A stretch of 64,000 nucleotides of DNA, from positions 9,084 to 73,083 of the IMG/VR virus record IMGVR_UViG_3300030503_000573. One strand, 5' to 3'. The translations under genes and the position numbers were made by a program. Below, piece after piece: positions 8,067 to 39,371 of this stretch; the stretch's first letter is position 1; each line of letters starts with the position of its first letter. The stretch is from a virus. The notes beneath the pieces were generated by a model that saw only the letters and a program-made list of their open reading frames with translations, ran no database searches and had not been told where the DNA came from.

Positions 8067-8076
8067 CAGGCCCTCC

Positions 8077-24017: not shown

Positions 24018-24598
24018 ACTACGGGCGTGTGTACCGCGAGTTCATCGCCGACCGACTGGGGAAGCAGGCCCAGCTGGAGGTGTATGAGACGCATCACATC
24101 AGACCGCGCTGCCTCAAGGGAGGCGACGAGCCCAGCAACCTGATTAGGTTGAGCGCTCCAGATCACCTCTTCGCTCATCTGCTGCTCGCCCGCATACACG
24201 GAGGCGCGCTCGCGTTCTCATTCATCTGGATGCTGGGCATGCAGAAGTATGCTGGGAGGCGTTCGCGCAGGACCTATGAGCAGCTGAGGGCGCAGCACCG
24301 AGCCCATGTGAGCAGCCTCAGAAGCGGGGCCTCAGCATCTGAGGTCACCCGCCAGAGGCAGAGCGAGGCTGCCGTCAGACGCTTCAAGGACTCTGAGCAA
24401 CTAAGACGCCACATCGAGGCGCGGCGCGGGAGGCCACAGCCGCCGCGCTCAGATGCCCACAGGGAGAGCCTGAGGCGCTCAGCGGCGCTCTGGCAGTCGA
24501 AGCCGGAGGCGAAGGCCGCAGCGAGTGAGCGCGCCCGCAAGCAGTGGCAGCCTGGAGGCTGTCTGTACGAGAAGTTCAAGGGGAATAGCAACGCATGA
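24014..24598 (+). CDS. HNH homing endonuclease with NUMOD3-like tail
   Basis: HHIRPRCLKGGDEPSNLIRLSAPDHLFAHLLL; basic C-terminal repeats; overlaps the RNR start. Confidence 0.85.
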   Translation: MNYGRVYREFIADRLGKQAQLEVYETHHIRPRCLKGGDEPSNLIRLSAPDHLFAHLLLARIHGGALAFSFIWMLGMQKYAGRRSRRTYEQLRAQHRAHVSSLRSGASASEVTRQRQSEAAVRRFKDSEQLRRHIEARRGRPQPPRSDAHRESLRRSAALWQSKPEAKAAASERARKQWQPGGCLYEKFKGNSNA

Positions 24599-26580
24599 CC
24601 GAGATGTCCGCCAGGGCGAAGGCGATATTCATACGCACCTACAGCCGGCCGAAGGAGGGCGGCGGGTACGAGACCTATGAAGAAGTCATGGAGCGCGTCA
24701 CCGGCCACCAGCGCTGGCTCTGGGAGCGCTCTCTGGGCCGGGCGCTCGACCCCCGAGAGGAGGCTGAGCTGGGTGCCCTAAAGGCCCTCTTCCTGGCGCG
24801 CAAATGCATGCCAGCCGGACGCACCCTGTGGCTCGGCGGCACTGAGATAGCCCGCAGCCGGGAGATCAGCCAGTTCAACTGCTCCGGGCTCGTCGTCAAG
24901 ACTATCCATGATGTCGTGGACGTCGCGTGGCTCTTGTTAAATGGCGCGGGGGTGGGGGCCAAGCCCACGCAGGGCGTGCTGAACGGCTTCGCCAGACCCA
25001 TCGACGACGTGAGGGTGATACGGTCCGAGCGCACCGAGAAGGGCGGCGAGGAGCACAACACCGAGACCTTCGACCGCGAGACCGGGGTGTGGACCATCCG
25101 GGTCGGCGACAGCGGTGAGGCCTGGGCCAAGGCTGTGGGCAAGCTGCTGGGAGGCAAGTGGGCGGCGAGGTCTCTGGTGCTGGACTTCTCCCAGATCAGG
25201 CCAGAGGGCTCGCTGCTGGCGAGGTATGGGTGGCGCTCCTCGGGCGACTCGGTCATCTCGGTTGAGATGGTCAAGATGGCTTCCCTGCTTAGCCGCCGGG
25301 CCGGCCAGCTGCTCTCCAAGCTGGACATCGCTGACATCGTCAACCACCTCGGGGTCATCCAGACGGGCCGTCGTGGGGCCGAGATACTGCTGATGGACAG
25401 CGATGACCCCGAGGCCGACGCCTTCGCTGCCTTCAAGGCCCGCTACTGGGAGCGGCCGGAGACGCACCACAGGGCTCAGAGCAACAACTCCCTGGTGTTC
25501 TCAGACCGGCCGAGCAGGACACGGCTGCGGGAGATATTCGACGAGATGATGTCTAACGGCGGCAATGAGCCGGGCTTCATCAACGGCGAGGCCGCCCGAG
25601 CACGCGCCCCCTGGTTCTACACCGTCAATCCTTGTGCTGAGATACTGCTGGCCGACCGGGGCCTGTGCAACCTAACCGAGACCTCGGTGGCCGCCTTCGA
25701 CCGCATGGACGACCTGCTTGAGGCTCTGAGGCTGATCGCCCGGGCGAACTACAGGCAGACGCTGGTGGAACTCGACGACGGTATTCTGCAGCGCTCCTGG
25801 CACGAGAACCAGGCATTCCTGAGGCTGTGCGGGGTCTCCCTCACCGGGGTGGCCCAGCGGCCGGACCTCACGGCCCACGACCTGCGCATGATGAGAAACG
25901 CGGCTGTGAGCGGGGCCTGGGCGATGGCCGATGAGCTGGGTACCCCGCGCCCCAAGAATGTCACCTGCGTGAAGCCGTCCGGCACGCTGGGCAAGGTGAT
26001 GGACGCCGCCGAGGGGGCCCACGTGCCGCCCGGCCGCCACATCATCAACTCTGTGGTCTACGCCCGCACCGACCCGCTGGTGGGCCGGCTACGCGAGGCT
26101 GGGTATCGGGTCAGGCCACATCCGACGGCCGAGACGCAGGTGCTGGTTGCCTTCCCGGTTGAGTTCAGCGGTGGTCACTTTACGCCGGAGCCGGGACCGA
26201 CCGGCGGCACCATGTGGGTGAATCGAGAGACGGCGCTCGCCCAGCTCAGGCGGTATCGGCTGCTGCAGGAGAACTTCTCGGACCAGAATGTATCGCTCAC
26301 GGTCAGCTACACGCCCGACGAGGTCGACGGCGTGTGCGACTGGCTGTACGCAAACTGGGGCGGCTACGTGGGTGTAGCCTGGATGCTGCGGATGGACCCA
26401 GCCACGACGCCCGAGAGCGTAGGGGCCCCATACCTGCCCCAGCAGGTGGTGACGCAGGAGGCCTACGCCGAGTACATCGCCGAGCTGCGCGAAGTCGACT
26501 GGGAAGACGCGGGCGGTGCGGTCGAGGAGAATGACGCCCTCGACCCGGATTGCGAGGGCGGGGTATGCCCGGTGAGGTGA
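24595..26580 (+). CDS. nrdJ: Class II (B12-dependent) ribonucleotide reductase
   Basis: PAGRTLW, FNC, NPCAEI...CNL, VKPSGT, C-terminal CEGGVCPVR. Confidence 0.92.
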   Translation: MTEMSARAKAIFIRTYSRPKEGGGYETYEEVMERVTGHQRWLWERSLGRALDPREEAELGALKALFLARKCMPAGRTLWLGGTEIARSREISQFNCSGLVVKTIHDVVDVAWLLLNGAGVGAKPTQGVLNGFARPIDDVRVIRSERTEKGGEEHNTETFDRETGVWTIRVGDSGEAWAKAVGKLLGGKWAARSLVLDFSQIRPEGSLLARYGWRSSGDSVISVEMVKMASLLSRRAGQLLSKLDIADIVNHLGVIQTGRRGAEILLMDSDDPEADAFAAFKARYWERPETHHRAQSNNSLVFSDRPSRTRLREIFDEMMSNGGNEPGFINGEAARARAPWFYTVNPCAEILLADRGLCNLTETSVAAFDRMDDLLEALRLIARANYRQTLVELDDGILQRSWHENQAFLRLCGVSLTGVAQRPDLTAHDLRMMRNAAVSGAWAMADELGTPRPKNVTCVKPSGTLGKVMDAAEGAHVPPGRHIINSVVYARTDPLVGRLREAGYRVRPHPTAETQVLVAFPVEFSGGHFTPEPGPTGGTMWVNRETALAQLRRYRLLQENFSDQNVSLTVSYTPDEVDGVCDWLYANWGGYVGVAWMLRMDPATTPESVGAPYLPQQVVTQEAYAEYIAELREVDWEDAGGAVEENDALDPDCEGGVCPVR

Positions 26581-27445: not shown

Positions 27446-27775
27446 ATGACGAAGAGCCAGCCCCAGTTCGCCTTCACGGTGCGCCGGACCACCTATGAGT
27501 TCGAGGGTCGCTACGTCTCGACCAGCACTCAGGTCGTCTCCCGCGAATACTTCTGCTCGGCGGCTGGGGCCGCGTTCGCCTGCCGCCGCGCCGGTGACCC
27601 CGGCGACACGACCGACGGTGGCGTCTGTGGCGCGATTGAGAAGCTCCAGCCCGGCATGGTCTATGACTTCCAGCTCAATCAATGGGTTCCCGGCATGGAG
27701 TGGAAGCCCTGGTACGGAGAGGCGTGGGCGGCTCGCGAGCCGGTCGCCGATCCCTTTGACGACATGCCGTTCTGA
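27446..27775 (+). CDS. Hypothetical early protein
   Basis: ATG 10 nt after ATAAGGAG. Confidence 0.6.
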   Translation: MTKSQPQFAFTVRRTTYEFEGRYVSTSTQVVSREYFCSAAGAAFACRRAGDPGDTTDGGVCGAIEKLQPGMVYDFQLNQWVPGMEWKPWYGEAWAAREPVADPFDDMPF

Positions 27776-27803
27776 AGCATCAATCAGCATAAGGAGACAT
27801 CAG

Positions 27804-28367
27804 ATGACCCGCACCCGCCGCCCCGCTGGCTCCCGTGCCCACCCTGTCACCACCACCCTCGGCTCGGCCTTTGAAGATGGCCGCTCCGATGTCGAGGGCC
27901 TCTACGAGGAGATGAACGACTGGGCCTCCAACATGGAGGGCAACAGCATGGAGCACCTGCCCAAGTACGACGAGGTCACCGAGGCCCGCGACGCGCTGGA
28001 GACAGCCAACGACACCCTCGGCGGCATCGAGCCGCCAGACGCCATCGCTGACCTGGAGGTCCACTTCACGACTGACACGCGCCAGAACGCCCAGAGCCGC
28101 TCGGGCCGTATGGGGAATGTCCTGCAGGCCCTGGGCGCGGCCAAGGACGCCGCCGAGGCCTGGATGGAGGAAAACCCTGAGCTGGAGGTCAGCGAACCAG
28201 ACGAGGAATTCATCGACGGCAACGAACCCCTGGAGGAAGAAGAGAAGGTCACCCAGGAGCAGGTCGAAGAGCGCGAGGCTGCCCGCACCGAGGTCGAAGA
28301 ATTCCTCAACGAGCTGGACAGCGCCATCAGCGAGGCCGAGGGGGTCAGCTTCCCCGGCATGTACTAG
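27804..28367 (+). CDS. Acidic hypothetical early protein
   Basis: CATAAGGAG RBS; very Glu/Asp-rich helical sequence. Confidence 0.65.
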   Translation: MTRTRRPAGSRAHPVTTTLGSAFEDGRSDVEGLYEEMNDWASNMEGNSMEHLPKYDEVTEARDALETANDTLGGIEPPDAIADLEVHFTTDTRQNAQSRSGRMGNVLQALGAAKDAAEAWMEENPELEVSEPDEEFIDGNEPLEEEEKVTQEQVEEREAARTEVEEFLNELDSAISEAEGVSFPGMY

Positions 28368-28401: not shown

Positions 28402-29091
28402 ATGACCAACACCACCTACACCACCAAGCGGGCGGCCATAGCCGGCGCGCGCCGCGCCCTCGCCAAGGCGGGCGTCGAGAACGCCCTGAGCCAGGTCCAC
28501 TTCAACGTCCACCTGCGGGAGGACAGCGACGAGTGGTACTGGGCGGCGGTGGACCTGACGCCGGCTGAGCGGAAGGCCCAGGTGACCAAGCCCTCAGGCA
28601 AGTCCTTTCCCGACGCTGACCCTGGTTCGACCAGGGAGCTGGCCGATCAGAAGGCCGCCCGCCAGTCTCGCGCGGCCAAGCAGGCCATCGCCGAGACCAC
28701 GGCCAGGACGCCGCCCACCCCGCCGCCCACCCCGCCGGTCGCTCCGGCCGAGCGCTGGCGCAAGCCCAAGCGCGCCGAGCCGTCGAAGATCGCCTACCGG
28801 CCGCGCTCGGGCTCGCAGCAGCGGGCGGCCTACGAGCTGCTCACCAGCCCGGACTACCCCGAGGGCATCGAGGCCCAGACCTTCTGCGACCTCATGAACC
28901 CGTGGGTCAAGCCTGGCGCGACGCCGTGGACCCCCGCCAACACCTGGGGCTTTCTCAACTACCTGCTCGTCAGCCAGAAGGGCTACGGCCTGAGCTTCGA
29001 CGGCACCCGGTTCCGCCTGCTGGTGCCGAAGGACGAGCGCGACCCGGTCGCGCGCAAGGCCGACCCGCTGCCGCCGATGAAGGCGAAGTGA
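28402..29091 (+). CDS. Hypothetical early protein (basic, possible C-terminal winged helix)
   Basis: CATAAGGAG RBS; Pro-rich linker. Confidence 0.65.
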   Translation: MTNTTYTTKRAAIAGARRALAKAGVENALSQVHFNVHLREDSDEWYWAAVDLTPAERKAQVTKPSGKSFPDADPGSTRELADQKAARQSRAAKQAIAETTARTPPTPPPTPPVAPAERWRKPKRAEPSKIAYRPRSGSQQRAAYELLTSPDYPEGIEAQTFCDLMNPWVKPGATPWTPANTWGFLNYLLVSQKGYGLSFDGTRFRLLVPKDERDPVARKADPLPPMKAK

Positions 29092-29300
29092 TGCGCAAGC
29101 CCACCACCCACCAGAGCTCCGTCATCGAGCTGCTCCGGCTCGGGCATGTCACGCCCGAGCCGCACGCCCCCCGCGCGGCGGTGGCCCACTACGAGGCCAA
29201 CCCGGCGGCGGCCGTGTGGGTGGTCGCCCGTACCCTCAGCGGTGCCAACCTCACCGAGATGTGGCGCGTCCACCCCGACGGCCGCGCGGAGCAGTTCTGA
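29091..29300 (+). CDS. Hypothetical protein
   Basis: 69 aa, coupled by TGATG overlaps. Confidence 0.5.
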   Translation: MRKPTTHQSSVIELLRLGHVTPEPHAPRAAVAHYEANPAAAVWVVARTLSGANLTEMWRVHPDGRAEQF

Positions 29301-30265
29301 TGAGCATCAGCATGAGAGGCTGGACCTACGGGGCCGAGCACGAGTTCGTGGACTGGCCACGGTCGAGGCCGCTCCCTGCGGGGTGCACCGCCCTGACGAA
29401 TGAGTACACCATCGTCAACTCGACCGGGGTGGCGACCGACCCGCACCACGACCCGGCCCGGCGCACCTACGCCTGGGGCCACGAGGTCAACACCCCGCCG
29501 ACCGACGACATCGGGGGCCAGGTCGGCATCATGATGGAGCTGCTGGAGGCGCTGCCCGAGGCCCGCGTCAACTACCGCTCTGAGCTCAACATCCACATCC
29601 GGGTGCCAGGCCTGCGAGACGACCTCGCGGCGCTGAAGCGCCTCGCCGACTACAACGGCCGCCACCTGAGGACCGCCGTCGAGCTGGTCGACCCCATGAG
29701 CCCCCCGGTGCGCTCCCTGGGCATGACCGACGACGAGTGGGAGGGCGCCAAGCGCAACTACGTGGTGCGCCGCAACTTCCAGCACCGGGTGCTGCCGCCC
29801 GACCGCACGGCCCGCCAGCTGGCGGCTGCCACCACCACTGAGTTCTTCGAGGCCGAGGTGCCGAAGGCGAGGGGCAACGGCCGCCCGATGTGGCACGCCC
29901 AGCCCCGGTGCGCGGTAAACCTGCGGCAGCTGCTGCAGACCGACACGGTGGAGTTCCGCCACTGGGCGGGGACGCTGAACGCCGGCTTGTTCCAGAACGC
30001 TGGGCTCTGGTGCATGTTGTACCTGCGAGGAGCCCTCTTCGATCCTGATACTGCGCCAACAGCTCTGTGGAATGGAATGGCGAGCAGCTTGTTAGAATTC
30101 CCACCCCAGCACCCCTACGAGCACTGGAAGGAGCGTCGTTTCCGCGCCACCACCCACGACGGCTCCAACCGCCGTGACGAGATTCTACGCAACATCGCGG
30201 CCATCGAGAGCGGCGAGTTCGACGACCTGCCCGAGTCGGTCGCACCTAGGAGGCTGCCGCTGTGA
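29300..30265 (+). CDS. Putative amidoligase (COOH-NH2 ligase, glutamate-cysteine ligase/GS fold)
   Basis: TYGAEHEF, GHEVNTPP, LNIHIRVP, AVNL, TVEFRHWAGTL motifs. Confidence 0.8.
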   Translation: MSISMRGWTYGAEHEFVDWPRSRPLPAGCTALTNEYTIVNSTGVATDPHHDPARRTYAWGHEVNTPPTDDIGGQVGIMMELLEALPEARVNYRSELNIHIRVPGLRDDLAALKRLADYNGRHLRTAVELVDPMSPPVRSLGMTDDEWEGAKRNYVVRRNFQHRVLPPDRTARQLAAATTTEFFEAEVPKARGNGRPMWHAQPRCAVNLRQLLQTDTVEFRHWAGTLNAGLFQNAGLWCMLYLRGALFDPDTAPTALWNGMASSLLEFPPQHPYEHWKERRFRATTHDGSNRRDEILRNIAAIESGEFDDLPESVAPRRLPL

Positions 30266-31110
30266 CGCGCATCGACGTAGCCGTCATCGGCGGGGGCCTG
30301 TTCGGGCGCACCATCGCGGCCGAGATGTGGGCCCAGGGACGGGAGTGTCAGGTACTCGACGACGCGCGGCCCTGGAGGGGCTCGGCCCCGGCCGCCTGCC
30401 TGATGCGGCCAAGCTGGTTCTCCAAGATGGAGAGGGGCGAGTACGTCGCCTCGATGGACCGGCTGGACCGGCTGTTCGGGGTCAAGAAGGTCAGGTTCGA
30501 GACGCCCGCAGGGCCGGCCGACCTGGACTGGGTGGACCCAGCCGTGGTGATGCGGCCGGACGCCTGTGTCATACCGGCGACGGTCACCGACATCTGGCGC
30601 GGCGAGGGCTACTGGGCGCTCAGCGTCAACACAGGACAGCCGGTCCACGCCCGCTCGGTCGTCGTGGCCACCGGCGTTTGGGTGCCGGAGCTTGTCAGGA
30701 CGCCCCACAACATCACCGCCCTCGGCGGGTGGGCCGTGACCTGGGCATGGCCCTACGAGCGCCAGCAGGGCCCGAGCCGCCTGGAGCCGTGGGCTCCCTA
30801 CAAGCAGCTCATCGGCTTCCAGCGGGGGGCTTGGGAGTGGTGGGCCGGCGACGGCACGGCGCTCCTCCCGGGATCGCTCACGCCAGAACGGCGCGACGCC
30901 TCCGAGAACCGCCTCCTGGCCTTCGGCAAGCGCCTTGGCCTAGCGGGTGTCGCCAGCATCACGGGCGGCCTCCGGCCGAAGGTTCCCGGGCTGCGCGCGC
31001 CGGCCCTCGTCGAGGAGGTCGCGCCCGGCCTGTGGATCGCGACCGGCGGCGCAAAGAACGGAACCCTTGGCGCGGCCTGGGCCTCGCTCCAGCTGAAGGA
31101 CAGGCTCTAG
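30262..31110 (+). CDS. FAD-dependent oxidoreductase/lyase (DAO/glycine oxidase-like)
   Basis: VAVIGGGLFG Rossmann motif, GSAPAAC, VVVATG, GGLRP, ATGGAKNG. Confidence 0.85.
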   Translation: MTRIDVAVIGGGLFGRTIAAEMWAQGRECQVLDDARPWRGSAPAACLMRPSWFSKMERGEYVASMDRLDRLFGVKKVRFETPAGPADLDWVDPAVVMRPDACVIPATVTDIWRGEGYWALSVNTGQPVHARSVVVATGVWVPELVRTPHNITALGGWAVTWAWPYERQQGPSRLEPWAPYKQLIGFQRGAWEWWAGDGTALLPGSLTPERRDASENRLLAFGKRLGLAGVASITGGLRPKVPGLRAPALVEEVAPGLWIATGGAKNGTLGAAWASLQLKDRL

Positions 31111-31476
31111 ATGCGCTTCGTGCTCCGCTCCAAGCTCCACAACGCCACGGTCACCGAGGCGAACCTGCTGTACGTGGGCTCGATCACCATCGACGAGCAC
31201 CTCATGGAGGTCGTCGGCCTGTGGCCCGGCGAGCGCGTGCTGGTGGTCTCCAACACGAGCGGGGCCCGCCTGGAGACCTACGTCATCACCGGCGACCGCT
31301 ACTCCGGGGCGATCTGCATGAACGGGGCCGCCGCCCACCTCATCTCGGCCGGCGAGCAGGTCATCATCATGGGCTTCGAGCTGGCCGAGCGGCCCATCAC
31401 ACCGGCCGTGGCCCTGTGCACGCCTAATAACCAGGTAGCACGCATGCTAAGCGAAATCTCAGGAGAGTTCCTATGA
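31111..31476 (+). CDS. panD: Aspartate 1-decarboxylase (pyruvoyl-dependent)
   Basis: SKLHNATVTEANLLYVG|SITID autocleavage site, GARLETYVI, NGAAAH. Confidence 0.95.
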   Translation: MRFVLRSKLHNATVTEANLLYVGSITIDEHLMEVVGLWPGERVLVVSNTSGARLETYVITGDRYSGAICMNGAAAHLISAGEQVIIMGFELAERPITPAVALCTPNNQVARMLSEISGEFL

Positions 31477-31646
31477 TCCAAGCCCTCGTCATGGCAGTGA
31501 TGCTGTGCGCGCTAGTGGTGGTCACCGCCAAGGTGCTGACCCTGCTGCTGCGCCTCGTGCTGGTGCTCGCCGGCATGGCGGTGCTGGCCGTGCTCGGGGC
31601 AGCCACATTCCTCATCACGCTCGCCGCGTCTGTTGCGAGCGCCTAG
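31473..31646 (+). CDS. Small very hydrophobic membrane protein (57 aa, not in ORF track)
   Basis: MIQALVMAVMLCALVVV...; AGGAG RBS and ATGA overlap with panD. Confidence 0.5.
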   Translation: MIQALVMAVMLCALVVVTAKVLTLLLRLVLVLAGMAVLAVLGAATFLITLAASVASA

Positions 31647-31696
31647 AGACCCGCGCGCGGCGGCTTCCGCGCACAGCAAGAAGGAGGACTACGACT

Positions 31697-31855
31697 ATGG
31701 ACAAGATCATGAGCTACCTGGGCGACGAAGGCGGTGCCAGCGCCGCTGAGTACGCCTTGATCCTGGCGCTGATCGCCCTGGTGATCATCGTCAGCGTCAC
31801 GACCCTCGGCACCAACATCAACGGTGTCTTCTCGCACGCTGCCAAGTCTATCTGA
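31697..31855 (+). CDS. flp: Flp/Tad type IVc prepilin
   Basis: MDKIMSYLGDEGG|ASAAEYALILALIALVIIVSVTTLGTN; prepilin cleavage G and EY Flp motif; AAGGAGG RBS. Confidence 0.9.
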   Translation: MDKIMSYLGDEGGASAAEYALILALIALVIIVSVTTLGTNINGVFSHAAKSI

Positions 31856-31899
31856 CGCGGCGCGGCGGCCCGGGGTGGTGAGCCCCGGGCGACTACCTT

Positions 31900-32460
31900 G
31901 TGAATCATATGGAGTTCTCAGACGTGGCCAGGGCGATGTTCTACGACAGCTATCAGGACGAAGTGAGGGACTGGATGCTCCAGACCTTCCCGCCCGAGGT
32001 CTGCCAGGACCGGGTCGAACGCGCCGACCGCCTGCTGGAGGAGGTCTTCGAGCTGCTCCAGAGCGGAGGCTACGACCCGGCGCGGGTCGCAATGATCCGC
32101 GACTACGTCTGGGGCCGACCGGTCGGCGAGCCGGCGCAGGAGGTGGGTGGTGTCGCTGTGACCCTCGCGGCCTACTGCTGGGTGCACGGCCTTGACTACG
32201 AGGCTGCTGCCAGGGCCGAGGTGGCCCGGGTGTGGACCATGATTGATGTCATCCGCAGGAAGCAGGCGGCCAAGCCCAAGGGGAGCCCGCTGCCGGTCGC
32301 GGTGGACCACCCGGCGGAGGCTCCTGTATCCAGAACAGCTGTCATGATATTTGGACAGCCTAAGCTGTACTATGAGGTCTACGAATGCGATCCTCGTGAT
32401 GGCGCGATGTGGACTGATGAGCGCGTCACGTCATGGTTTAGAGGCGAGCCGCTGCCGTGA
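31900..32460 (+). CDS. MazG-like nucleotide pyrophosphohydrolase
   Basis: YQDEVRDW...RLLEEVFEL...QEVGGVAVTL all-alpha NTP-PPase pattern. Confidence 0.75.
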   Translation: MNHMEFSDVARAMFYDSYQDEVRDWMLQTFPPEVCQDRVERADRLLEEVFELLQSGGYDPARVAMIRDYVWGRPVGEPAQEVGGVAVTLAAYCWVHGLDYEAAARAEVARVWTMIDVIRRKQAAKPKGSPLPVAVDHPAEAPVSRTAVMIFGQPKLYYEVYECDPRDGAMWTDERVTSWFRGEPLP

Positions 32461-32852
32461 CCAGAACCGTCCCCCGCACCTCGCCCCCGCTCGACCTGGA
32501 GCTGGTCGCGCGCACCCTGCGCACCGCCACCTACCGGGCCTGGATGCTGAGCCTGACCAACAACCGCATGGCCGTGCGCTCCTACGAGGAGATGAAGGCC
32601 CCGGAGGTCGGGCAGATGGTCGTCGAGCTGACGACCATCTGGGCGCGTGCGTTCGACCTCAAGGGCGTCGGGGAGCTGGTGCTCGTAGCCCAGGAGAGGA
32701 TCGACCTCGGCGGTGAGCCCTGGGACGAGGTCTTCCAAGGCACCCCGTGCCCGACCGAGCCAGTCTACTACGTCAAGAACCTAGACGGCACCGTGACCCG
32801 CTGGACGAACTGCCAGCTGCTAGCCTGCCCAGCAGACCTGGGGCTAGTCTAG
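32457..32852 (+). CDS. Hypothetical protein
   Basis: 131 aa, GTGA overlap. Confidence 0.5.
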   Translation: MTRTVPRTSPPLDLELVARTLRTATYRAWMLSLTNNRMAVRSYEEMKAPEVGQMVVELTTIWARAFDLKGVGELVLVAQERIDLGGEPWDEVFQGTPCPTEPVYYVKNLDGTVTRWTNCQLLACPADLGLV

Positions 32853-32857
32853 CACCC

Positions 32858-33178
32858 ATGACCCGCCCCATCCACTTCACCCCGGCCGACGTCGAGCGCT
32901 TCCTGAGCTTCGTCGTGCCCGCGCTTGACGGCTGCCACCACTGGGCAGGTGGCACGAGCTGCGGTGGCCACAACACGAGCGAATACGGCTCGTTCTGGGT
33001 GGACGGGCGCGGGGTGCGTGCCCACATCTTCGCCGCCGTCGCGCTGGGCGACGGGCACGCGCCGGGCAACCACGTCGACCACCTGTGCGTGACGTCGCTG
33101 TGCGTCAACCCAGCCCACCTGGAGGACGTGCCCCCGCCGGTGAACCAGGCGCGGAAGCTGGAGCGGCGGAGGCGTTGA
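32858..33178 (+). CDS. HNH endonuclease (Zn-binding loop type)
   Basis: CHHWAG...YGSF...RAH...VDHLCVTSLCVNPAHLE. Confidence 0.85.
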   Translation: MTRPIHFTPADVERFLSFVVPALDGCHHWAGGTSCGGHNTSEYGSFWVDGRGVRAHIFAAVALGDGHAPGNHVDHLCVTSLCVNPAHLEDVPPPVNQARKLERRRR

Positions 33179-33495
33179 TGGCCCACCCCTCCACCCTCAT
33201 GGCCATCGCGGCTGGCGACTACCGCCTGTTCTGGGTGCGGGTTGGCCCGACCTCGGCGCACACCGCGTGCTGCTGCCCGGCCCACGCCCTCGACAAGCTG
33301 GTGATGATCGGCGTGCTGCGCAGCGACGGCCGCCACCCGGCCGAGGGCGGCGAGATTGACGGCCGGTTCGTGCACTGGTTCTTGGCCCACCCAGAAGACC
33401 TCGACCGGCCGATGGGGCAGGGCGAGGTCGACTTCATCCAGGCCGCGTGCGAGAGCGCGGGGCTGAGCAGCATCGTGAGCGAGGCGAGGAACTAG
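33178..33495 (+). CDS. Hypothetical protein
   Basis: 105 aa, GGAGG RBS, directly before the amino acid:DNA transferase. Confidence 0.5.
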   Translation: MAHPSTLMAIAAGDYRLFWVRVGPTSAHTACCCPAHALDKLVMIGVLRSDGRHPAEGGEIDGRFVHWFLAHPEDLDRPMGQGEVDFIQAACESAGLSSIVSEARN

Positions 33496-33497
33496 CA

Positions 33498-34394
33498 ATG
33501 ATGGAAGTCGAAGACTTTGGCCGCCTGCTGATCGAGACCGGCGACCTCGACCCGGTGTACGTGGCGCTGAACCGCATGCGTTGGCCGGGCGGGTTCGCCC
33601 AGAGGGACCGCTGGCTGCAGGCGTACTGGTGCTGCTACCACGTGGGGGCCAGCTGCTGGCTCGCCGAGGTTCCGGACTTCTGGGGCTTCATGCGGCTGGC
33701 CGCCGTCAACGAGCGGCCGTCTCCCCTGGGCGGCCGGTGGCCCAGGGCGGCCGAGCGCCGCCACTGGCGGGGTCAGGCAGCCATAGACAGCGTCAACGAC
33801 CTGGAGCGCCGCTACGGCAACCCGAACGCCCCTGACAAGAGCTGGTCCATGGTGCGGTACTGCGGCTTCGACGTCGAGCGGGAGGACATCCACCAGCCCA
33901 AGGTCCCCCTCGCGCTGATTGAGGCCCGCGTCAAGGAGCACACCGGCTTCGGGCCCTGGATCGCCTTCAAGGTCGCCGACATGCTGGAGCGGTGCTGCGG
34001 GGTGCCGGTCGAGTTCGGCAACGCGCCGATGTTCTACGACAGCCCGAAGAAGGCCGCGCTGGCGCTGTTCAAGATGAGGGCCGGCCTGCCAGCCGCTGCC
34101 AAGGTCAAGGACGAGCTGGGGGCCATCTCCCAGGTCTCAGCCCACCTGCTGCGCACCATAGGCGACCTGGAGGCCCCCGGCGGGGGCCGGGCGTGCGGGC
34201 TGCCCGAGGTCGAGACCGTGCTGTGCAAGTGGGGCTCCCACCTCAGCGGCCACTATCCGCCGGGGAAGGACATCGCCGAGATTTATGAGGGGCTGTCCGA
34301 GTGGGAGACAGTCAGCCCGCTGGCCAGGAAGTTCCTCGCGGCGATGCCTGTTGACCAAGCAAAGCTGCTAGGTGCGGCCCCGGCTGCGGCCTAG
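33498..34394 (+). CDS. Amino acid:DNA transferase, aGPT-Pplase2 clade
   Basis: GDLDPVY, ERRHWRG, GFGPWIAFKVADMLER, EVETVLCKW...HYPPGKD (HhH-glycosylase-like fold). Confidence 0.85.
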   Translation: MMEVEDFGRLLIETGDLDPVYVALNRMRWPGGFAQRDRWLQAYWCCYHVGASCWLAEVPDFWGFMRLAAVNERPSPLGGRWPRAAERRHWRGQAAIDSVNDLERRYGNPNAPDKSWSMVRYCGFDVEREDIHQPKVPLALIEARVKEHTGFGPWIAFKVADMLERCCGVPVEFGNAPMFYDSPKKAALALFKMRAGLPAAAKVKDELGAISQVSAHLLRTIGDLEAPGGGRACGLPEVETVLCKWGSHLSGHYPPGKDIAEIYEGLSEWETVSPLARKFLAAMPVDQAKLLGAAPAAA

Positions 34395-34420
34395 GTTAAC
34401 CACTGACATAAGGAGCTCAC

Positions 34421-35059
34421 ATGGGCTGGGTACTCAACATACGCGGGACCAACGGGTCAGGGAAGAGCCACCTCGTGCGCTCGATGCTGCCGACGCCTGA
34501 GTATAGGCCAAATGTTAACCTAGCCCGCTACGACTCACCGACGAAGCGCTACCCTGACCGCAAGAATGTAGTACCAGGGTATGTACTCAGTGAGCGAGAC
34601 CTCGGACTGTTTGGTGTTGTTGGCTCCTACGAGACCCCGACAGGCGGCCTCGACGGAGTGCCAACATTTGCGGCTCAGATCGCGAGCTGTGCTCAGCTGC
34701 TCAACGACAACGAGTGCTGTACAGTCCTCGCCGAGGGCGTGCTGGCCTCCACGGTCTTCGGAGCCTGGGGCGCGTTCGCCGATGACCTCTCGCGGTTATC
34801 TCGACACCGTATGGCGTTCCTCTACATGAGCACGCCGGTTGACGTATGCCTGATGCGCATCACCGAGCGCCAGATTAAGGCCGGTCGCATCAGGGATATC
34901 AACGAGCAGCTGGTGCGCGACAAGGTGCGGGCCGTCGCCGCGACCCGCGAGCGGGCGCTGGCCGCCGGCCACGCGGTGTTCGACCTGCCGTTCGGGCTGG
35001 AGCGCGTGGCGCTGACTGGCATCATGCGCGGCGACATGGAGAGCTACCGTGGGAACTAG
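34421..35059 (+). CDS. P-loop 5-hmdU DNA kinase paralogue 1
   Basis: NIRGTNGSGKS, VGSY...GGLD, AEG, CLMRITER; CATAAGGAG RBS. Confidence 0.8.
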   Translation: MGWVLNIRGTNGSGKSHLVRSMLPTPEYRPNVNLARYDSPTKRYPDRKNVVPGYVLSERDLGLFGVVGSYETPTGGLDGVPTFAAQIASCAQLLNDNECCTVLAEGVLASTVFGAWGAFADDLSRLSRHRMAFLYMSTPVDVCLMRITERQIKAGRIRDINEQLVRDKVRAVAATRERALAAGHAVFDLPFGLERVALTGIMRGDMESYRGN

Positions 35060-35678
35060 GCTGATAATCAACCTGCGTGGGCCCAACGGGGCCGGCAAGA
35101 CGACGGTGGCCCGGGGGTTCCTGGAGCACAAGACTATCGACCTGGAGCCATACAGATACATCAACTCTGAGGGTCGAAGCAGAAGCTGGCCTATAGCCCA
35201 ATGCAAGGCGCCAGGCCTCCAGCTGCCTATCTACGTGCTTGGACGCTATGATGTCCAGCAGGGCGGCTGTGACACGGAGAAGGACATGGACGCCATAGAG
35301 CGCTGCGTCCAGTGGGCCGTGGACAACCTCACCGATGGTCACATCTTCTTCGAGGGCTTCGTGGTCTCCAAGAGCGGCGGCCGGTGGCTGGAGTTCGCCG
35401 GGCGCAACGAGCGGGCTGGGAAGGGTCGCTACGTCTGGGCCTTCCTGAGGCCCAACCTCAACGAGCTGGAGGCACGCATCAAGGGCCGCAATGGCGGCAA
35501 GGAGGTCAAGCTTCCACTCCTTGACAACACGATGCGCACAGTTGACCTCATTCGCAACAAGGCAAAGGCCCTCGTCACCGACCGCCGGTTCCTGGTGGAC
35601 CTGGACTGGCAGCTCAGCGCGCCCATGGTTACCGAGCAGCTGATCCTACGCTTACAGCAGCTGGAGGCCGTCCGATGA
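35049..35678 (+). CDS. P-loop 5-hmdU DNA kinase paralogue 2
   Basis: INLRGPNGAGKTT, LGRY...GGCD, FFEG, RIKGRNG. Confidence 0.8.
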   Translation: MGTRLIINLRGPNGAGKTTVARGFLEHKTIDLEPYRYINSEGRSRSWPIAQCKAPGLQLPIYVLGRYDVQQGGCDTEKDMDAIERCVQWAVDNLTDGHIFFEGFVVSKSGGRWLEFAGRNERAGKGRYVWAFLRPNLNELEARIKGRNGGKEVKLPLLDNTMRTVDLIRNKAKALVTDRRFLVDLDWQLSAPMVTEQLILRLQQLEAVR

Positions 35679-36301
35679 CTACCCGAGTCATCGTCAACAT
35701 CAGGGGTGCCAACGCCAGCGGCAAGACGACGCTGATGCGCCGCGTGATTGGGTCTGCGCCATACGTAGACCTAGGCCAGTTTCCAGACGCCCAGGGGAAG
35801 ATGGGCTTCGTCCAAGGCCACCAGTTCTCGCTGGAGGGGTTCGAGCTGCCCTTCCTGGTCATCGGCCGGTACGATGCGTCCAAGTACTCGGGGTGCGACA
35901 AGATCAAGAGCGCTGACCAGATCGAGGGGGTGTTGCGCTGGGCCATAGACGGCGGCTTCGCCGGCCACGTCCTCTTCGAGGGCTTCCGGGTCTCCAAGAG
36001 CTGGGCCCGCTTCGCCGCCGTGCGCAACTGGTGCGTGAGCAACCATCATGCCAGCTGGGTGTGGGCCTTCCTGCGCGCCGAGCCCGAGCTGATCTTTGAG
36101 CGCTCGGCCGCCCGGCGCGAGGCCGACGCGAGGCCCATTGACAAGGAGGAGCTCGCGGCAGTGTGCCGGGTGATGGCCTCCACCTGGCGCAAGGCCAAGG
36201 TGGCGATGCCACGAGACTGCCTGGACCTGGACGCCTCGCAGCCGACCGAGGTGCTGTACGCGCAGCTGCTCGGGCGCATCAAGATGCTGGAGTCGGCGTG
36301 A
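35675..36301 (+). CDS. P-loop 5-hmdU DNA kinase paralogue 3
   Basis: NIRGANASGKTT, IGRY...SGCD, LFEG, RSAARR. Confidence 0.8.
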   Translation: MTTRVIVNIRGANASGKTTLMRRVIGSAPYVDLGQFPDAQGKMGFVQGHQFSLEGFELPFLVIGRYDASKYSGCDKIKSADQIEGVLRWAIDGGFAGHVLFEGFRVSKSWARFAAVRNWCVSNHHASWVWAFLRAEPELIFERSAARREADARPIDKEELAAVCRVMASTWRKAKVAMPRDCLDLDASQPTEVLYAQLLGRIKMLESA

Positions 36302-37290
36302 TGGACGTCGGCCCGCTGGTCGCCTGGGTGAATGAGCGCGAGGCGGTGCGGCTTAGGAAGGCTATCATTGCTGCTGGCGTTGACAGCTGGGGCCTAGAAG
36401 CCGGCTCCCTCACTCGTGATGTCTGGGGCGAGCATCCCAGAGACTACTGGCAGCTGGGTCACCTCACCGACGACCCCATCCTTCAGCAGTTCAAGTTCTG
36501 CAACGTCCGCCGCGAAGACGACCGGGTGACTGTCTGGGTTCGCGAGCACATCAGGGAGCCGTATGCCGACCAGCAGCACCTGTGGCTCATGCTGGCCATC
36601 GCGAGGACGATCAACTGGCCCCCGGCGCTGCTGGAGCTGATCAGGGGCGGAGCCGAGGGCGTGTCCTCGTTCCCCAACATGCAGGACTTCGATCCGCGCT
36701 GCATGGCCCAGGTGCTGGAGGCGCGGCGGGCGCGTGGCGAGAAGGTCGAGACCGGCGCGTACATGATCAGGGCGGAGAGCCGGAAGGACAAGCCCTGGTA
36801 CAGCTGGTCGAAGCAGCGGTATATCGCAGAGATCGTGATTGGCCATCTCTGGTACATGCGGGCCAGCTGGAAGCATGACTTTGAAAAGAAGAAGCTGACT
36901 ACGCTGGAGCGCACCTGGGAAATTTTCCAGGAATATGACGGCTGGGGCCCATTCATGGCCTTCCAGGTCATCGTCGACCTCGCACACACCCGCTACCTGC
37001 GAGACGCGCCCGACCGCTCTAGCTGGGCCGCGCTCGGGCCCGGCTCGCGCCGGGGGCTGAACCGGCTGTACGGCCGGCCGGTGACAACTGGGCTGACGCA
37101 GGCCCAGGGTCTGGAGGAGATGCGAGAGGTCCAGGCGGCGGTGAACGCGCCGGGCGTGCTGGCGCCGTGGGTCGAGAAGATCGCGCTGAGCGACATACAG
37201 AACTGCTTGTGCGAGACGGATAAATACCTCAGGGTAAGGAACGGCGAGGGTCGGCCGAGGGCCCTCTACAAGCCATGGAGTGGGTGGTGA
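36301..37290 (+). CDS. Amino acid/amine:DNA transferase, aGPT-Pplase1 clade
   Basis: TDDPILQQFKFCNVRREDDRVT, GAYMI, GPFMAFQVIVDL, GPGSRRGLNRL, DIQNCLCETDKY. Confidence 0.9.
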   Translation: MDVGPLVAWVNEREAVRLRKAIIAAGVDSWGLEAGSLTRDVWGEHPRDYWQLGHLTDDPILQQFKFCNVRREDDRVTVWVREHIREPYADQQHLWLMLAIARTINWPPALLELIRGGAEGVSSFPNMQDFDPRCMAQVLEARRARGEKVETGAYMIRAESRKDKPWYSWSKQRYIAEIVIGHLWYMRASWKHDFEKKKLTTLERTWEIFQEYDGWGPFMAFQVIVDLAHTRYLRDAPDRSSWAALGPGSRRGLNRLYGRPVTTGLTQAQGLEEMREVQAAVNAPGVLAPWVEKIALSDIQNCLCETDKYLRVRNGEGRPRALYKPWSGW

Positions 37291-37514
37291 GCATGATCAA
37301 TCGGATCAACCAGCTTATGGTGCGAACCCGATGCTTTGCTGGCCTCCACCCTCGGGTAATCTCTGGTCGAGGGATGTGGGGCGACGCTGGCACCTGCCTG
37401 GTATGCGGAGCCGACGGCTATGGCCTCAAGGGCCTTCACAACACAGACCTCGCCGATGCAAGCGAAGATGACCGAGAGCGCCTGAGGGTGCTGGACGAGC
37501 AGAGGACGGCCTGA
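37287..37514 (+). CDS. Small Cys/His-containing protein
   Basis: C..GLH...CLVC; coupled between transferase and TS. Confidence 0.45.
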   Translation: MSMINRINQLMVRTRCFAGLHPRVISGRGMWGDAGTCLVCGADGYGLKGLHNTDLADASEDDRERLRVLDEQRTA

Positions 37515-38602
37515 TGCACACCATCCACGCCCGCAACGTCAACGACGCCCTACACGCCGGCCTGATGCTGGTCCACAGCCACGGCATCCCGGAGACGAGC
37601 CGCAATGGTCCGGTCCTCCGCGTGCCCGAGCCGGTGGCCACCGTGTACGCCCGGCCGTGCGAGCGCGTGCTGATCCAGCCGTGGCGCGACGCCAACCCGT
37701 TCTTCCACCTCGTCGAGGCCTTCTGGATGCTCGCCGGGCGCGACGACCTGCGGCAGCTGACGCCCTACGTGTCCCGCATGAGGGAGTTCTCCGACGACGG
37801 CGGGGTGACGCAGCCCGGGGCGTACGGGAAGCGGTGGCGCGATCACGTCAAGAGCCCTTTCCTGGGCGGCATCGACCAGCTCAGCTGGGTAGCCGGGAGG
37901 CTTAGAGAGGACCCCAGCGACCGGCGCTGCGTCATTCAGATGTGGGACGCCAGCGTGGACATCCACAAAGCGTCCATCGGTGGCAACGACGCCCCGTGCA
38001 ACCTCACGGCCACGCCCTACGTCGCGGCCGGCGCGCTCCACCTCGCGGTGTTCTGCCGCTCCAATGACATCATCTGGGGCGCATACGGCGCCAACGCGGT
38101 GCACTTCTCGGTGCTGCTGGAGTACCTGGCGGCGCGGGTTGGGGTGCCGGTCGGGACATACACGCAGGTGAGCATCAACTACCATGCCTACCTCAGCACC
38201 TTCCCCAAGGTCATGCCGGTCGAGGCGGCGCAGCCGTACAGCGTGAGCGGATTTGACGCCCTTCAACCCATACCTATGTTTTCAGAATGGTTGGTCGGCG
38301 GCGAAGATCGGGAATGCGAGCGCATCTTCCAGGAGGACCTCAGGGTCTTCTTCGAGGAGGGCCCCTTCGCCTACGCCACCGCCGGGCGCATTCCCTTCAT
38401 GCGCCGGGTGCTGGTGCCTATGTGCCTGGCCCACCAGCACTGGCGCACGAAGAAGGGCGAGGACCGCTACCTCGGCGCGCTGGAGATTCTGCGCAGCTGC
38501 GCCGCGCCGGACTGGCGCCGGGCCGCCGAGGAGTGGGTTGGCCGCCGGTACGACAGGTGGAAGCTCGCCGCAGACGACGGAGCCCACGATGCTGAGGGAT
38601 AG
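37514..38602 (+). CDS. Thymidylate synthase homologue, probable dUMP hydroxymethylase
   Basis: SRNG, NPFFHLVEAFWMLAGR, GAYGKRWR, DAPCN, RSNDIIWGAYGANAVHF (Asn = dUMP-type). Confidence 0.88.
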   Translation: MHTIHARNVNDALHAGLMLVHSHGIPETSRNGPVLRVPEPVATVYARPCERVLIQPWRDANPFFHLVEAFWMLAGRDDLRQLTPYVSRMREFSDDGGVTQPGAYGKRWRDHVKSPFLGGIDQLSWVAGRLREDPSDRRCVIQMWDASVDIHKASIGGNDAPCNLTATPYVAAGALHLAVFCRSNDIIWGAYGANAVHFSVLLEYLAARVGVPVGTYTQVSINYHAYLSTFPKVMPVEAAQPYSVSGFDALQPIPMFSEWLVGGEDRECERIFQEDLRVFFEEGPFAYATAGRIPFMRRVLVPMCLAHQHWRTKKGEDRYLGALEILRSCAAPDWRRAAEEWVGRRYDRWKLAADDGAHDAEG

Positions 38603-38771: not shown

Positions 38772-39371
38772 ATGCCCAAGCTCTTTGACCGCGTCAGGCT
38801 CGCCCGCGAGGGGGCGGCCGTCGAGCGCGCCCACCAGCACCCCCACCTGCAGCGCTACTCGGTCGGGCACCACTCGCTCGATGTGGTCACGCTGGTGGTG
38901 CTGTGCTGGAAGCACGACCACGGCGGCGAGCTCCCCCGGGCCGAGCTGCTCGTGGCAGCGGCCTTTCACGACGTTGCCGAGCGCGTCACCGGCGACCTGC
39001 CAAGTCCCATCAAGGACCGCTGCCGCGATGCCCTGGGCGAGATCGAGAAGGAGGTGGACCGCTACCTCGGGGTGGACGTCGGGCTGCGGGAGGACGAGCA
39101 GTGGTACCTCAAGAGCTGCGACAAGCTGGAGCTGTACCTGTGGGCCCACGAGGAGGCCAGCCGGGGCAATTGCCGCTTCCTGGGCTGGTGCCGGGTGTAC
39201 GAGCAGAACTGGCAGTATGAGCCGCCGCCTGAGTCCGTCAAGCGCATCGTCGAGGCTGTCGACCACGCGGGCCACATACCTGTTCTGCCGGGCGACCCGA
39301 CCGACATGATCAGGCTCGGGCTCGCCAACATGGCCGCCGAGCAGCGCTCGGGAGTGCGCACCGATGGATGA
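38772..39371 (+). CDS. HD-domain 5'-deoxynucleotidase (YfbR-like)
   Basis: SVGHHS, FHDVAERVTGDLPSPIK, LKSCDKLE. Confidence 0.85.
   Translation: MPKLFDRVRLAREGAAVERAHQHPHLQRYSVGHHSLDVVTLVVLCWKHDHGGELPRAELLVAAAFHDVAERVTGDLPSPIKDRCRDALGEIEKEVDRYLGVDVGLREDEQWYLKSCDKLELYLWAHEEASRGNCRFLGWCRVYEQNWQYEPPPESVKRIVEAVDHAGHIPVLPGDPTDMIRLGLANMAAEQRSGVRTDG

Follow-up and report, generated by a model that had tools for sequence, protein, structure and literature searches.

A phage gene cluster with an amidoligase, a flavin lyase and aspartate 1-decarboxylase: a candidate route to a beta-alanylated thymidine hypermodification

We analysed a window of 64,000 nucleotides from an uncultured phage, positions 9,084 to 73,083 of the 73,083-bp IMG/VR record IMGVR_UViG_3300030503_000573, and propose, with a probability that we put at roughly 45%, that it encodes a post-replicative thymidine-hypermodification pathway in which a PaMx11-type core is followed by a new last step adding beta-alanine. 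The most likely product would be 5-(beta-alanyl-aminomethyl)-2'-deoxyuridine, an undescribed base with a free cationic amine at its end. Hypermodified thymidine shields phage DNA from restriction and CRISPR nucleases.

The region is centered on three translationally coupled genes (29300-31476), which, like all the genes named here, lie on the plus strand at positions supported by ORF calls and Pfam profile searches. They encode an Amidoligase_2-like protein of 321 aa with a GS/GCL fold (29300-30265), a FAD enzyme (30262-31110) and a 121-aa aspartate 1-decarboxylase, PanD (31111-31476). The first two are joined by a GTGA overlap and the ATG of panD comes immediately after the TAG stop of the FAD gene, with no intergenic bases, both as the original prediction had described; AGGAGG is located 8 nt upstream of the FAD gene start. 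The coupling proposed there is real, but the unit is longer than the trio: the amidoligase ATG overlaps the stop of an upstream 69-aa ORF (29091-29300), which is bounded by TGATG at both ends, and the PanD stop forms an ATGA overlap with a hydrophobic 57-aa ORF (31473-31646). A family search with the longer ORF upstream of the amidoligase (28902-29300) returned no match. About 2 kb downstream of the trio are the predicted transferase, three P-loop kinases, a kinase helical domain (the aGPT-Pplase1 of the original prediction) and a thymidylate synthase (TS) homologue, all of them present as first listed.

The TS-fold enzyme (37514-38602; PF00303, 66.2 bits) retains the catalytic Cys and, in alignments, an Asn matching the Asn of TS, at which position the CMP hydroxymethylase MilA has Asp; it is of the uracil type and presumed to be a dUMP hydroxymethylase, with the 5-hmdU kinases and synteny pointing to hydroxymethylation. 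Two paralogous P-loop 5-hmdU DNA kinases (34421-35059 and 35049-35678) score 31.9 and 32.5 bits against PF18748 (cut-off 27), while the third (35675-36301) lies below every family cut-off and joins them by blastp clustering and a weak AAA_33 match (21.5 bits). The 5-hmdU DNA kinase helical domain, HMUDK_hel (36301-37290), has an ATG at 36301 overlapping the kinase stop (TGATG) and matches PF18723, which we take to be the family formerly named aGPT-Pplase1, with 139.3 bits (cut-off 25) scored on the ORF 36163-37290. A YfbR-like HD-domain 5'-deoxynucleotidase (38772-39371; PF12917, 49.2 bits) is a conserved neighbour of such clusters and is syntenic in related loci.

The amino acid:DNA transferase (ADDT; ORF 33447-34394, likely start 33498) matches PF18724, formerly aGPT-Pplase2, with 58.8 bits against a cut-off of 26.2, and recovers the structures PDB 25qc (E 7.6e-75) and 8z2m, the PaMx11 gp46 glycinyltransferase (E 5.2e-60). 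It keeps all 12 active-site and glycine-site residues named for gp46 (D24, Y47, Y51, E92, W146, K150, E243, T244, C247, K261, D262 and E265), among which D24, W146 and K150 contact glycine and C247 is the nucleophile (PMC11472151). It is 45-47% identical to transferases of M6/YuA-type phages (45% to M6 ORF051) and groups with two experimentally glycine-specific transferases, PaMx11 gp46 and M6 gp51, so that glycine specificity is predicted. The FAD enzyme (Pfam DAO, 48.3 bits; phrog_16743), which had been taken for a flavin lyase from the outset, proves orthologous over its full length to PaMx11 gp47, whose structure is solved (PDB 8z2o, E 1.4e-57 over residues 3-281 of 282). Seven of the nine named gp47 pocket residues are retained, W51, F52, Y180, Q182, R210, R242 and K268, the proposed carboxylate binder being R242, and two differ, K202 being replaced by L and Y244 by K (PMC11472151).

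PaMx11 makes 5-acetylaminomethyl-dU by the successive use of a kinase (gp49), a glycine:DNA transferase (gp46), a flavin lyase (gp47) and an acetyltransferase (gp48), according to Lee et al. 2021 (PMC8989533), and structures for the enzymes of this pathway are given in PMC11472151. Clear homologues of its kinase, transferase and lyase are present in the window, and the predicted intermediate 5-aminomethyl-dU is common to both systems. By homology to characterised enzymes, the TS homologue would supply 5-hmdUMP for incorporation of 5-hmdU into DNA, the P-loop kinases and the helical-domain protein would phosphorylate 5-hmdU on the DNA, the transferase would exchange the phosphate for glycine to give N-alpha-glycinyl-T, and the lyase would cleave this to 5-aminomethyl-dU and glyoxylate. 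Unlike PaMx11, the kinase is represented by three P-loop paralogues and a separate helical domain, and the acetyltransferase is missing, a GS/GCL-fold ligase and PanD standing in its place; this locus comparison lends support to the earlier proposal that the amidoligase has replaced the acetyltransferase. The system shares with Pseudomonas phage M6, which makes 5-(2-aminoethyl)-dU, the glycine:DNA transferase clade and the kinase and hydroxymethylase logic, but neither the radical-SAM isomerase nor the PLP decarboxylase used by M6 was found in the record. None of the profiles PF00583, PF00291, PF04055, PF13522 and PF02569 found anything at E <= 0.1 across the 73,083 bp, with positive controls detected (that for PF00583 in 14/14 genomes), and the whole 73-kb record is without recognisable GNAT, PLP, radical-SAM, GATase and PanC genes, which extends to its full length what had been reported for GNAT, PLP and radical SAM in the window.

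The amidoligase alone falls below the Pfam threshold (PF12224, 12.8 bits, E 0.11, cut-off 22), but its first assignment agrees with its homologues and predicted fold. We recovered 378 homologues, and we regard the protein as Amidoligase_2-like because 28 of the 36 that were aligned match PF12224 at E <= 0.01 (best 5.4e-07; a relative in the locus L089 scores 29.6 bits) and because of the fold. The AF2 model (pLDDT 91.6) has among its listed matches, 25 from Foldseek and 50 from VIA-align, exclusively GS, GCL, YbdK, PafA or GmaS ligases; the best listed by VIA-align are 1tt4 (Z 10.8, rmsd 5.1, 220 aligned residues) and 1r8g (Z 9.8), a moderate margin over the tool's background of 7-8. We therefore classify it as a carboxylate-amine ligase of the GS/GCL fold on the strength of the model, with a predicted ATP-dependent activity. 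E13, E15, E62, H99, R203, E218 and R220 are invariant in the 36 aligned sequences and kept in the PanD-linked clade. In a quick tree search the branch of the protein is long (1.19, the median being 0.35) and lies within the clade associated with FAD enzymes, with the outgroup clade of PanD-associated members also on long branches, and 19 of the 80 columns conserved in phosphatase-linked amidoligases are altered in it.

Of 2.9 million viral contigs surveyed, only about 140 carried this amidoligase; its unique viral sequences number 98, beside 141 metagenome matches; we inspected 80 of the metagenome loci, whose amidoligases are 33-47% identical to that of the window, the range for family members in other clusters being 33-52%. 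An ADDT gene occurs in the same locus in 70 of the 98 unique viral members, with the amidoligase usually between the transferase and the kinase, and the family is a recurrent tailoring enzyme of thymidine-hypermodification clusters. The uncharacterised metavirome clusters contain the same amidoligase family and, as in phage Simon (PQ683277), share the synteny ADDT-FAD-AMID-kinase-helical domain-TS-HD-DUF3310-PolA. It is conceivable that the amidoligase modifies a small molecule or protein and merely travels with the cluster, a reading to which two loci with the phosphatase discussed below and no transferase within 10 kb (L009 and L020) and some 17 distant members devoid of nearby cluster genes lend something; given the 70 shared loci and the conserved position within them, we consider it quite improbable.

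What accompanies the amidoligase suggests the nature of its acceptor. In 69 of the 70 loci with a transferase the companion enzymes produce, or might produce, a primary amine tethered to the base, the sole exception being a locus cut by the contig end, and this supports acylation of an amine by the amidoligase. The companions are the flavin lyase in 25 loci, the M6-type radical-SAM/PLP pair in seven and an Ntn glutaminase starting with MCG or MCA in 38 (70 in sum, one locus having both the glutaminase and the radical-SAM/PLP pair). An amine-capping role is further supported by the absence of a GNAT from the record and by the end points of two of these routes, which are primary amines: 5-NmdU for the lyase route and 5-NedU for the radical-SAM/PLP route (Lee et al., PMC8989533). 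Judging from gene context, the amidoligase would activate a free carboxylic acid at the expense of ATP and link it to the tethered primary amine. A gene for an LMW-phosphatase (PF01451, LMWPc) adjoins or is fused to the amidoligase in 65 of the 98 unique viral members; by contrast, the window record has PanD, with no such phosphatase in its entire length, and the phosphatase is likewise absent from all four phages that combine PanD with the amidoligase. The beta-alanyl model leaves the role of this usual partner unexplained.

In the preferred reading the acid would be beta-alanine that the phage PanD produces from aspartate of the host; PanD is coupled to the tailoring genes and catalytically intact in its residues. 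PanD matches PF02261 with 128.5 bits (cut-off 25; E 1.5e-37) and the TIGR00223 equivalog with 117.7 bits (cut-off 106). The Gly23-Ser24 self-processing site and K8, H10, Y21, R53, T56, Y57 and N71 are invariant in 17 PanD sequences and likewise in all four phage PanDs; we take these residues to correspond to the catalytic and substrate residues K9, H11, Y22, R54, T57, Y58 and N72 of E. coli PanD. The protein thus resembles the bacterial PanD of pantothenate and CoA synthesis and appears canonical, with self-cleavage and release of beta-alanine predicted. It differs from it in being phage-encoded and coupled to DNA-base tailoring genes in a record that encodes no PanC, so that pantothenate synthesis is not the encoded use of PanD. 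The same base would result if the amidoligase coupled the beta-carboxyl of aspartate to the aminomethyl group and the DNA-bound aspartyl residue were then decarboxylated by PanD. This we hold to be very improbable: the PanD active site is nearly identical to that of the cellular enzymes, and it keeps R53, presumably equivalent to the E. coli R54 that binds the free beta-carboxylate of aspartate, a partner that aspartyl-DNA would lack. As an analogy in its favor, M6 and ViI have PLP decarboxylases whose substrates are amino acids tethered to DNA (PMC8989533).

The distribution of PanD qualifies the proposal. It accompanies the amidoligase in four of the 98 unique viral loci and none of the 80 metagenome loci, leaving 174 amidoligase loci without it, from which we conclude that PanD is an accessory to the amidoligase pathway and does not belong to its core. 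The original interpretation is partly supported, namely with respect to the lyase, the glycine-clade transferase, the position of the amidoligase and the recurrence of PanD. The nearest relatives of the amidoligase evidently work without a phage PanD, which counts against the beta-alanyl model, and those 174 loci are also in keeping with a reading in which PanD, a recent acquisition from an alphaproteobacterial host, is an ordinary auxiliary metabolic gene that boosts beta-alanine for CoA and plays no part in the base, with the amidoligase using some acid of the host. PanD is indeed 67-74% identical over the whole alignment (69-78% in the best BLASTP segment) to the enzymes of Bradyrhizobium, Sphingomonas and Caulobacterales, and both amidoligase and transferase are missing from nine of the 13 viral PanD records, indicating that it can be a plain metabolic gene in phages. 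We nevertheless think this unlikely for the window, where PanD is translationally coupled inside the tailoring unit and PanC is missing from the record. The other four of the 13 records carry this amidoligase and represent three lineages that differ in their replication modules, and such adjacency in three unrelated phage lineages is to be set against the rarity of the amidoligase itself. The survey that had been called for thus placed PanD beside the amidoligase in three further viral contigs: L089 and L088 have the order AMID-PanD-TS with gaps of 1-18 nt, the L088 genome also having the FAD lyase, ADDT and kinases, and L092 has PanD within the ADDT operon, in the order PanD-GATase-ADDT-kinase-AMID with overlapping genes. 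This recurrence, the zero-gap coupling to the FAD gene, the equivalog score and the retained aspartate-binding residues support the link of PanD to the pathway.

The arrangement in L092, where panD is directly followed by the glutaminase and transferase genes with the amidoligase two genes on, would also fit a transferase that uses beta-alanine, followed by glutamine-dependent amidation. The original prediction had allowed that beta-alanine or aspartate may be the direct nucleophile of a transferase, which for beta-alanine would give 5-(2-carboxyethyl-aminomethyl)-dU; alternatively, the amidoligase might activate the carboxylate of the tethered glycine and join it to the amine of beta-alanine, for which its fold relative PafA (Z 8.9), which activates a carboxylate carried on a macromolecule, offers a precedent. 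We regard entry of beta-alanine by either of these routes as rather unlikely, since the window transferase keeps every glycine-contact residue and is closest to the two glycine-specific enzymes, and since the lyase would cut either adduct back to 5-aminomethyl-dU, rendering the extra step futile. Moreover, decarboxylation removes the tethered carboxylate in loci of the radical-SAM/PLP class (PMC8989533), so that a carboxylate-activating role of the amidoligase cannot be general.

With regard to the beta-alanyl model itself, all GS, GCL and PafA ligases characterised to our knowledge activate the gamma-carboxylate of glutamate, and the amidoligase could take glutamate or some other acid as its donor. 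For loci of the glutaminase class, amidation of a tethered carboxylate by the amidoligase is an alternative that would reverse the polarity assumed here. The demand of the proposed step for beta-alanine would be large: a genome of 73,083 bp with about 32% A+T has roughly 23,000 thymines, a number to be multiplied by the burst size.

The presence of amidoligases in thymidine-hypermodification clusters of metaviromes is already stated in Lee et al. 2021 (PMC8989533), and that part of the novelty first claimed falls away; we found no printed link between amidoligase clusters and PanD in the literature. By the above counts, no other uncharacterised tailoring enzyme of these clusters is as widespread as the amidoligase, and since its acyl donor is drawn from the host pool, there has so far been no way of guessing its substrate. 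Phages that carry PanD point to beta-alanine as a candidate donor. Somewhat more tentatively than for the window pathway itself, we suggest that phages have recruited the pyruvoyl enzyme PanD at least twice independently to feed beta-alanine into DNA, and that the amidoligase, with well over a hundred uncultured phage lineages encoding it, serves in general to cap amines at the expense of ATP, acylating aminomethyl- or aminoethyl-uracil in DNA with small acids, the PanD lineages making beta-alanyl-aminomethyl-uracil and the phosphatase-linked ones adding a different acyl group. Each new hypermodification supplies enzymes for site-specific derivatisation of DNA; if the present proposal is true, beta-alanine would for the first time be a building block of a DNA base, and a terminal primary amine borne on a flexible amide arm would lend itself to the labelling of DNA.

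On the plus strand, an unbroken run of genes, each overlapping or abutting the next, extends from 29091 to 31646 in a window with a G+C content of ~0.68, itself bases 9084-73083 of a 73,083-bp IMG/VR virus record that CheckV rates as complete. The run opens with a 69-aa ORF (29091-29300), which is followed by the gene for an amidoligase-like protein of 321 aa (29300-30265) and by that for an FAD enzyme (30262-31110), which is preceded by AGGAGG and joined to the amidoligase gene through a GTGA overlap. The ATG of panD (31111-31476) abuts the TAG of the FAD enzyme gene with no gap, and the panD stop overlaps, via ATGA, a hydrophobic 57-aa ORF (31473-31646) that closes the run. Small genes fill the ~2 kb up to a second coupled block, which encodes on the plus strand, in order, an amino acid:DNA transferase (PF18724, 58.8 bits), three paralogous P-loop kinases (two of which exceed the PF18748 cut-off), a kinase helical domain (PF18723, 139.3 bits; ATG at 36301, overlapping the kinase stop), a 79-aa ORF, a thymidylate-synthase-fold enzyme, an HD 5'-deoxynucleotidase, a DUF3310 protein and a family-A DNA polymerase. 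As both the gene chain and this block are present as stated, the observation from which the original prediction set out is correct: all its genes were located and their coupling is confirmed. It had further reported no GNAT acetyltransferase, PLP or radical-SAM gene in the window; none is found even in the entire record, nor is a GATase_6 glutaminase or the pantothenate-synthesis enzyme PanC.

The region has no megablast match among 50,697 phage records, and the ORFs at 27495-28367, 28402-29091 and 31900-33495 have no matches in the Protein Atlas, Pfam, PHROGs and NCBIfam beyond two PHROGs with no assigned function and a weak His-Me endonuclease hit. The latter falls on the plus-strand ORF 32747-33178, between PanD and the transferase, and is to PF05551 (E 4.3e-4), the zinc-binding loop found in homing endonucleases of the His-Me finger type; this ORF may account for the 2-kb gap, and GIY-YIG endonucleases (cluster c33) occupy comparable spots in related loci, such as locus L026 (9391-10005). 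Another of the small genes (31697-31855, plus strand, 52 aa) matches the Flp/Fap pilin family (PF04964, E 3.4e-12 for the ORF that encloses it), an unusual cargo for a phage, with a strong AAGGAGG ribosome-binding site in front and a G+C-rich hairpin behind. This pilin and the alphaproteobacterial affinities of PanD are together a hint that the host resembles Caulobacter or is of a similar kind. Further upstream, the 661-aa product of 24595-26580 (plus strand) shows weak matches only, to the ribonucleotide reductase alpha subunit (E 3e-4) and to the class II insertion domain (E 6e-3), and is probably a divergent B12-type ribonucleotide reductase.

The FAD enzyme aligns end to end with the solved flavin-dependent lyase gp47 of PaMx11 (8z2o, E 1.4e-57). 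Nine gp47 residues have been assigned by Wen et al. to the base pocket and to DNA binding, with R242 proposed as the holder of the glycine carboxylate (PMC11472151); seven of the nine named residues are retained (W51, F52, Y180, Q182, R210, K268 and R242), K202 and Y244 being altered. The transferase is likewise close to solved homologs (25qc, E 7.6e-75; the PaMx11 glycinyltransferase gp46, 8z2m, E 5.2e-60) and keeps 12 of 12 named residues, which make up the metal site and the leaving-group pocket, include the Cys247 nucleophile and contact the bound glycine. Identity to M6/YuA-type transferases is 45-47%, and M6 gp51 is by experiment a glycine:DNA transferase (PMC8989533, Table 1). A use of beta-alanine as the nucleophile of the transferase, or as the amine partner of the tethered glycine, we regard as unlikely. 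The thymidylate synthase homolog has the catalytic Cys, and the alignment column that reads uracil in thymidylate synthases is Asn, as in those enzymes, and Asp in the CMP hydroxymethylase MilA, which points to a uracil nucleotide as its substrate.

The amidoligase is the least certain sequence assignment of the cluster (PF12224, E 0.11). Its family comprises 378 proteins at E <= 1e-3; 28 of 36 aligned members match PF12224, and the window protein is 51-52% identical to its nearest relatives (P0005-P0007). The family sequence profile gave chance-level matches only against PDB chains. An AlphaFold model computed from the family alignment (pLDDT 91.6) has as its listed structural neighbors exclusively glutamine synthetase, glutamate-cysteine ligase, YbdK-type ligases, PafA and GmaS, the best being 1tt4 (Z 10.8) and 1r8g (Z 9.8). 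The full-text literature searched yielded no biochemical study of the amidoligase.

To place the family in context, loci were taken from viral contigs with two profiles, scored with HMMs of recurrent neighbors, and the neighbor families named via Pfam. Among the 98 unique amidoligases in the resulting 144 loci, 70 share their locus with a transferase, and 69 of these 70 have as a further companion a flavin lyase, a radical-SAM and PLP pair or a glutaminase, the sole exception beginning at a contig end. The companion is a gp47-type flavin lyase in 25 loci (three of which add a SPASM radical-SAM enzyme), the M6-type radical-SAM and PLP pair in seven, and in 38 a class-II glutaminase starting with MCG or MCA, mostly alongside a TET/JBP oxygenase and a glycosyltransferase; these counts total 70 since one locus has both the glutaminase and the pair. 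The product of the lyase route is 5-aminomethyl-dU, a tethered primary amine, and that of the radical-SAM/PLP route is 5-aminoethyl-dU (PMC8989533); it can be speculated that the glutaminase supplies ammonia to the transferase with the same primary-amine outcome. Where the companion is a flavin lyase, the genes run in the order transferase, FAD enzyme, amidoligase and kinase, and the amidoligase thus occupies the place of the PaMx11 acetyltransferase. On the simplest reading of this context, the amidoligase spends ATP to cap the tethered amine with a carboxylic acid. Given the recurrent transferase linkage, an amidoligase that does not act on DNA appears distinctly improbable. The association with thymidine-hypermodification clusters is itself already in print: Lee et al. 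2021 noted amidoligases and glutaminotransferases of unknown function in such metavirome clusters (PMC8989533). In one locus (L046, 12498-16384) amidoligase and kinase are separated by five tandem paralogs of ~260 aa that match nothing in Pfam (cluster c182), and a single copy is present in L025.

PanD exceeds the NCBIfam equivalog cut-off and is 67-74% identical over the whole alignment (69-78% in the best BLASTP segment) to proteins of Bradyrhizobium, Afipia, Sphingomonas, Caulobacterales and similar bacteria. It retains the Gly-Ser cleavage site and the catalytic and substrate-binding residues of E. coli PanD. This identity and these residues argue for an ordinary enzyme that acts on free aspartate and was acquired recently, and a decarboxylation of aspartate already ligated to the DNA is hardly credible. 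Five contigs carry an identical PanD, and the catalytic residues persist in all four amidoligase-linked phage PanDs. In cultured phages, tblastn with PanD matched mainly unannotated records or host-like fragments, the exceptions being Gordonia phage Jace and Achromobacter phage 2-1. The latter (OQ974181.1, locus L001) has an annotated panD (11989-12384) immediately upstream of its DNA polymerase, with a 473-aa thymidylate synthase homolog and MazG nearby; transferase and amidoligase are both absent from its entire record, so its PanD may serve another purpose.

That PanD is an unrelated metabolic gene in the window too draws on several counts against a link: the first 80 viral amidoligase loci all lack PanD within 10 kb, as do 80 metagenome loci whose amidoligases are 33-47% identical, and nine of 13 viral PanD records, three of them proviruses, lack both amidoligase and transferase. 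Single-protein scans with the amidoligases of L089 and L092 recovered only their own contigs. A PanD profile scan of viral contigs added three in which PanD stands beside a distant amidoligase-family member (25-39% identity to that of the window). Two of these loci, L089 and L088, have the order amidoligase, PanD, thymidylate synthase homolog with gaps of 1-18 nt, in phages whose replication relies on a PolIII alpha subunit. About 40 kb away in the 70-kb L088 genome lie a kinase, a flavin lyase (E 4.6e-43 to the lyase profile), a transferase, a second kinase, an FkbM methyltransferase and the helical domain. The third, L092 (a 140-kb contig), has PanD, glutaminase, transferase, kinase and amidoligase genes abutting or overlapping, then an intein-bearing thymidylate synthase homolog. 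The joint occurrence of panD, amidoligase and FAD enzyme with transferase genes, for which the original prediction proposed a survey, therefore recurs: the window and the L088 genome have in common the four-part set of lyase, transferase, amidoligase and PanD, and in L092 PanD sits inside the transferase operon. Of 2.9 million viral contigs, some 140 contain the amidoligase, as do four of the 13 viral PanD records, from three lineages; by a rough estimate, both scans being bounded by their search patterns, this co-occurrence is far beyond chance, and we hold the unrelated-gene explanation to be rather improbable. A quick IQ-TREE run groups the three other PanD-linked amidoligases on long branches in a deep clade of their own (support 98), and that of the window falls inside the flavin-lyase class, its branch 3.4 times as long as the median; the pairing therefore has at least two origins. 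As to the neighbors, the FkbM gene (7414-8130 of locus L157, from the L088 genome), between kinase and helical-domain genes, suggests an extra methylation step in that phage, and the L092 thymidylate synthase homolog (14811-16883) is split by an intein that carries an HNH endonuclease (PF14890, PF13392).

A low-molecular-weight phosphatase or ArsC-like domain (PF01451) directly follows the amidoligase, or is fused to it, in 65 of the 98 unique viral members; separate examples are L014 (4701-5183) and L027 (5987-6409), and fused ones L017 (9659-11338) and L024 (9946-11349). It is found in none of the four PanD loci (without versus with phosphatase, 4 versus 0 there and 29 versus 65 elsewhere; Fisher p 0.011, with lineages that are not independent). 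Amidoligases without the phosphatase differ at many columns invariant in the phosphatase-linked ones, that of the window at 19 of 80, including R159, R162, S166 and H167. One idea is that PanD and phosphatase are alternative means of supplying or handling the acyl donor. PanD as a homologous stand-in for the phosphatase was dropped, as the two are unrelated and the phosphatase profile has no match in the window (E > 1) or in the whole record. Convergence of the changed residues with the PanD-linked clade is weakly borne out: D41E is common to them, yet occurs in six of ten other phosphatase-less members.

By homology, the hydroxymethylase, the kinase, glycine transfer by the transferase and the flavin lyase would act in turn to yield 5-aminomethyl-dU. 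From context, the amidoligase would then acylate its amine, and the acid would be beta-alanine, as suggested by the coupled PanD, its recurrence, and the lack of PanC and of an acetyltransferase. To this exact model, with 5-(beta-alanyl-aminomethyl)-dU as the predicted base, we give a probability of roughly 45%. The full texts searched connect neither PanD nor beta-alanine with any DNA base; in its main text, Lee et al. 2021 does not use the words aspartate, pyruvoyl, PanD or LMWPc (PMC8989533). The pathway belongs, as a variant, among the known thymidine hypermodification systems that start from 5-hmdU. For diaminopropyl-thymine, a 2026 paper shows that infection rewires the supply of the precursor (PMC13458397). 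With ~23,000 thymines per genome (73,083 bp, ~32% A+T), the demand for beta-alanine would be such as to make a phage-encoded supply enzyme plausible.
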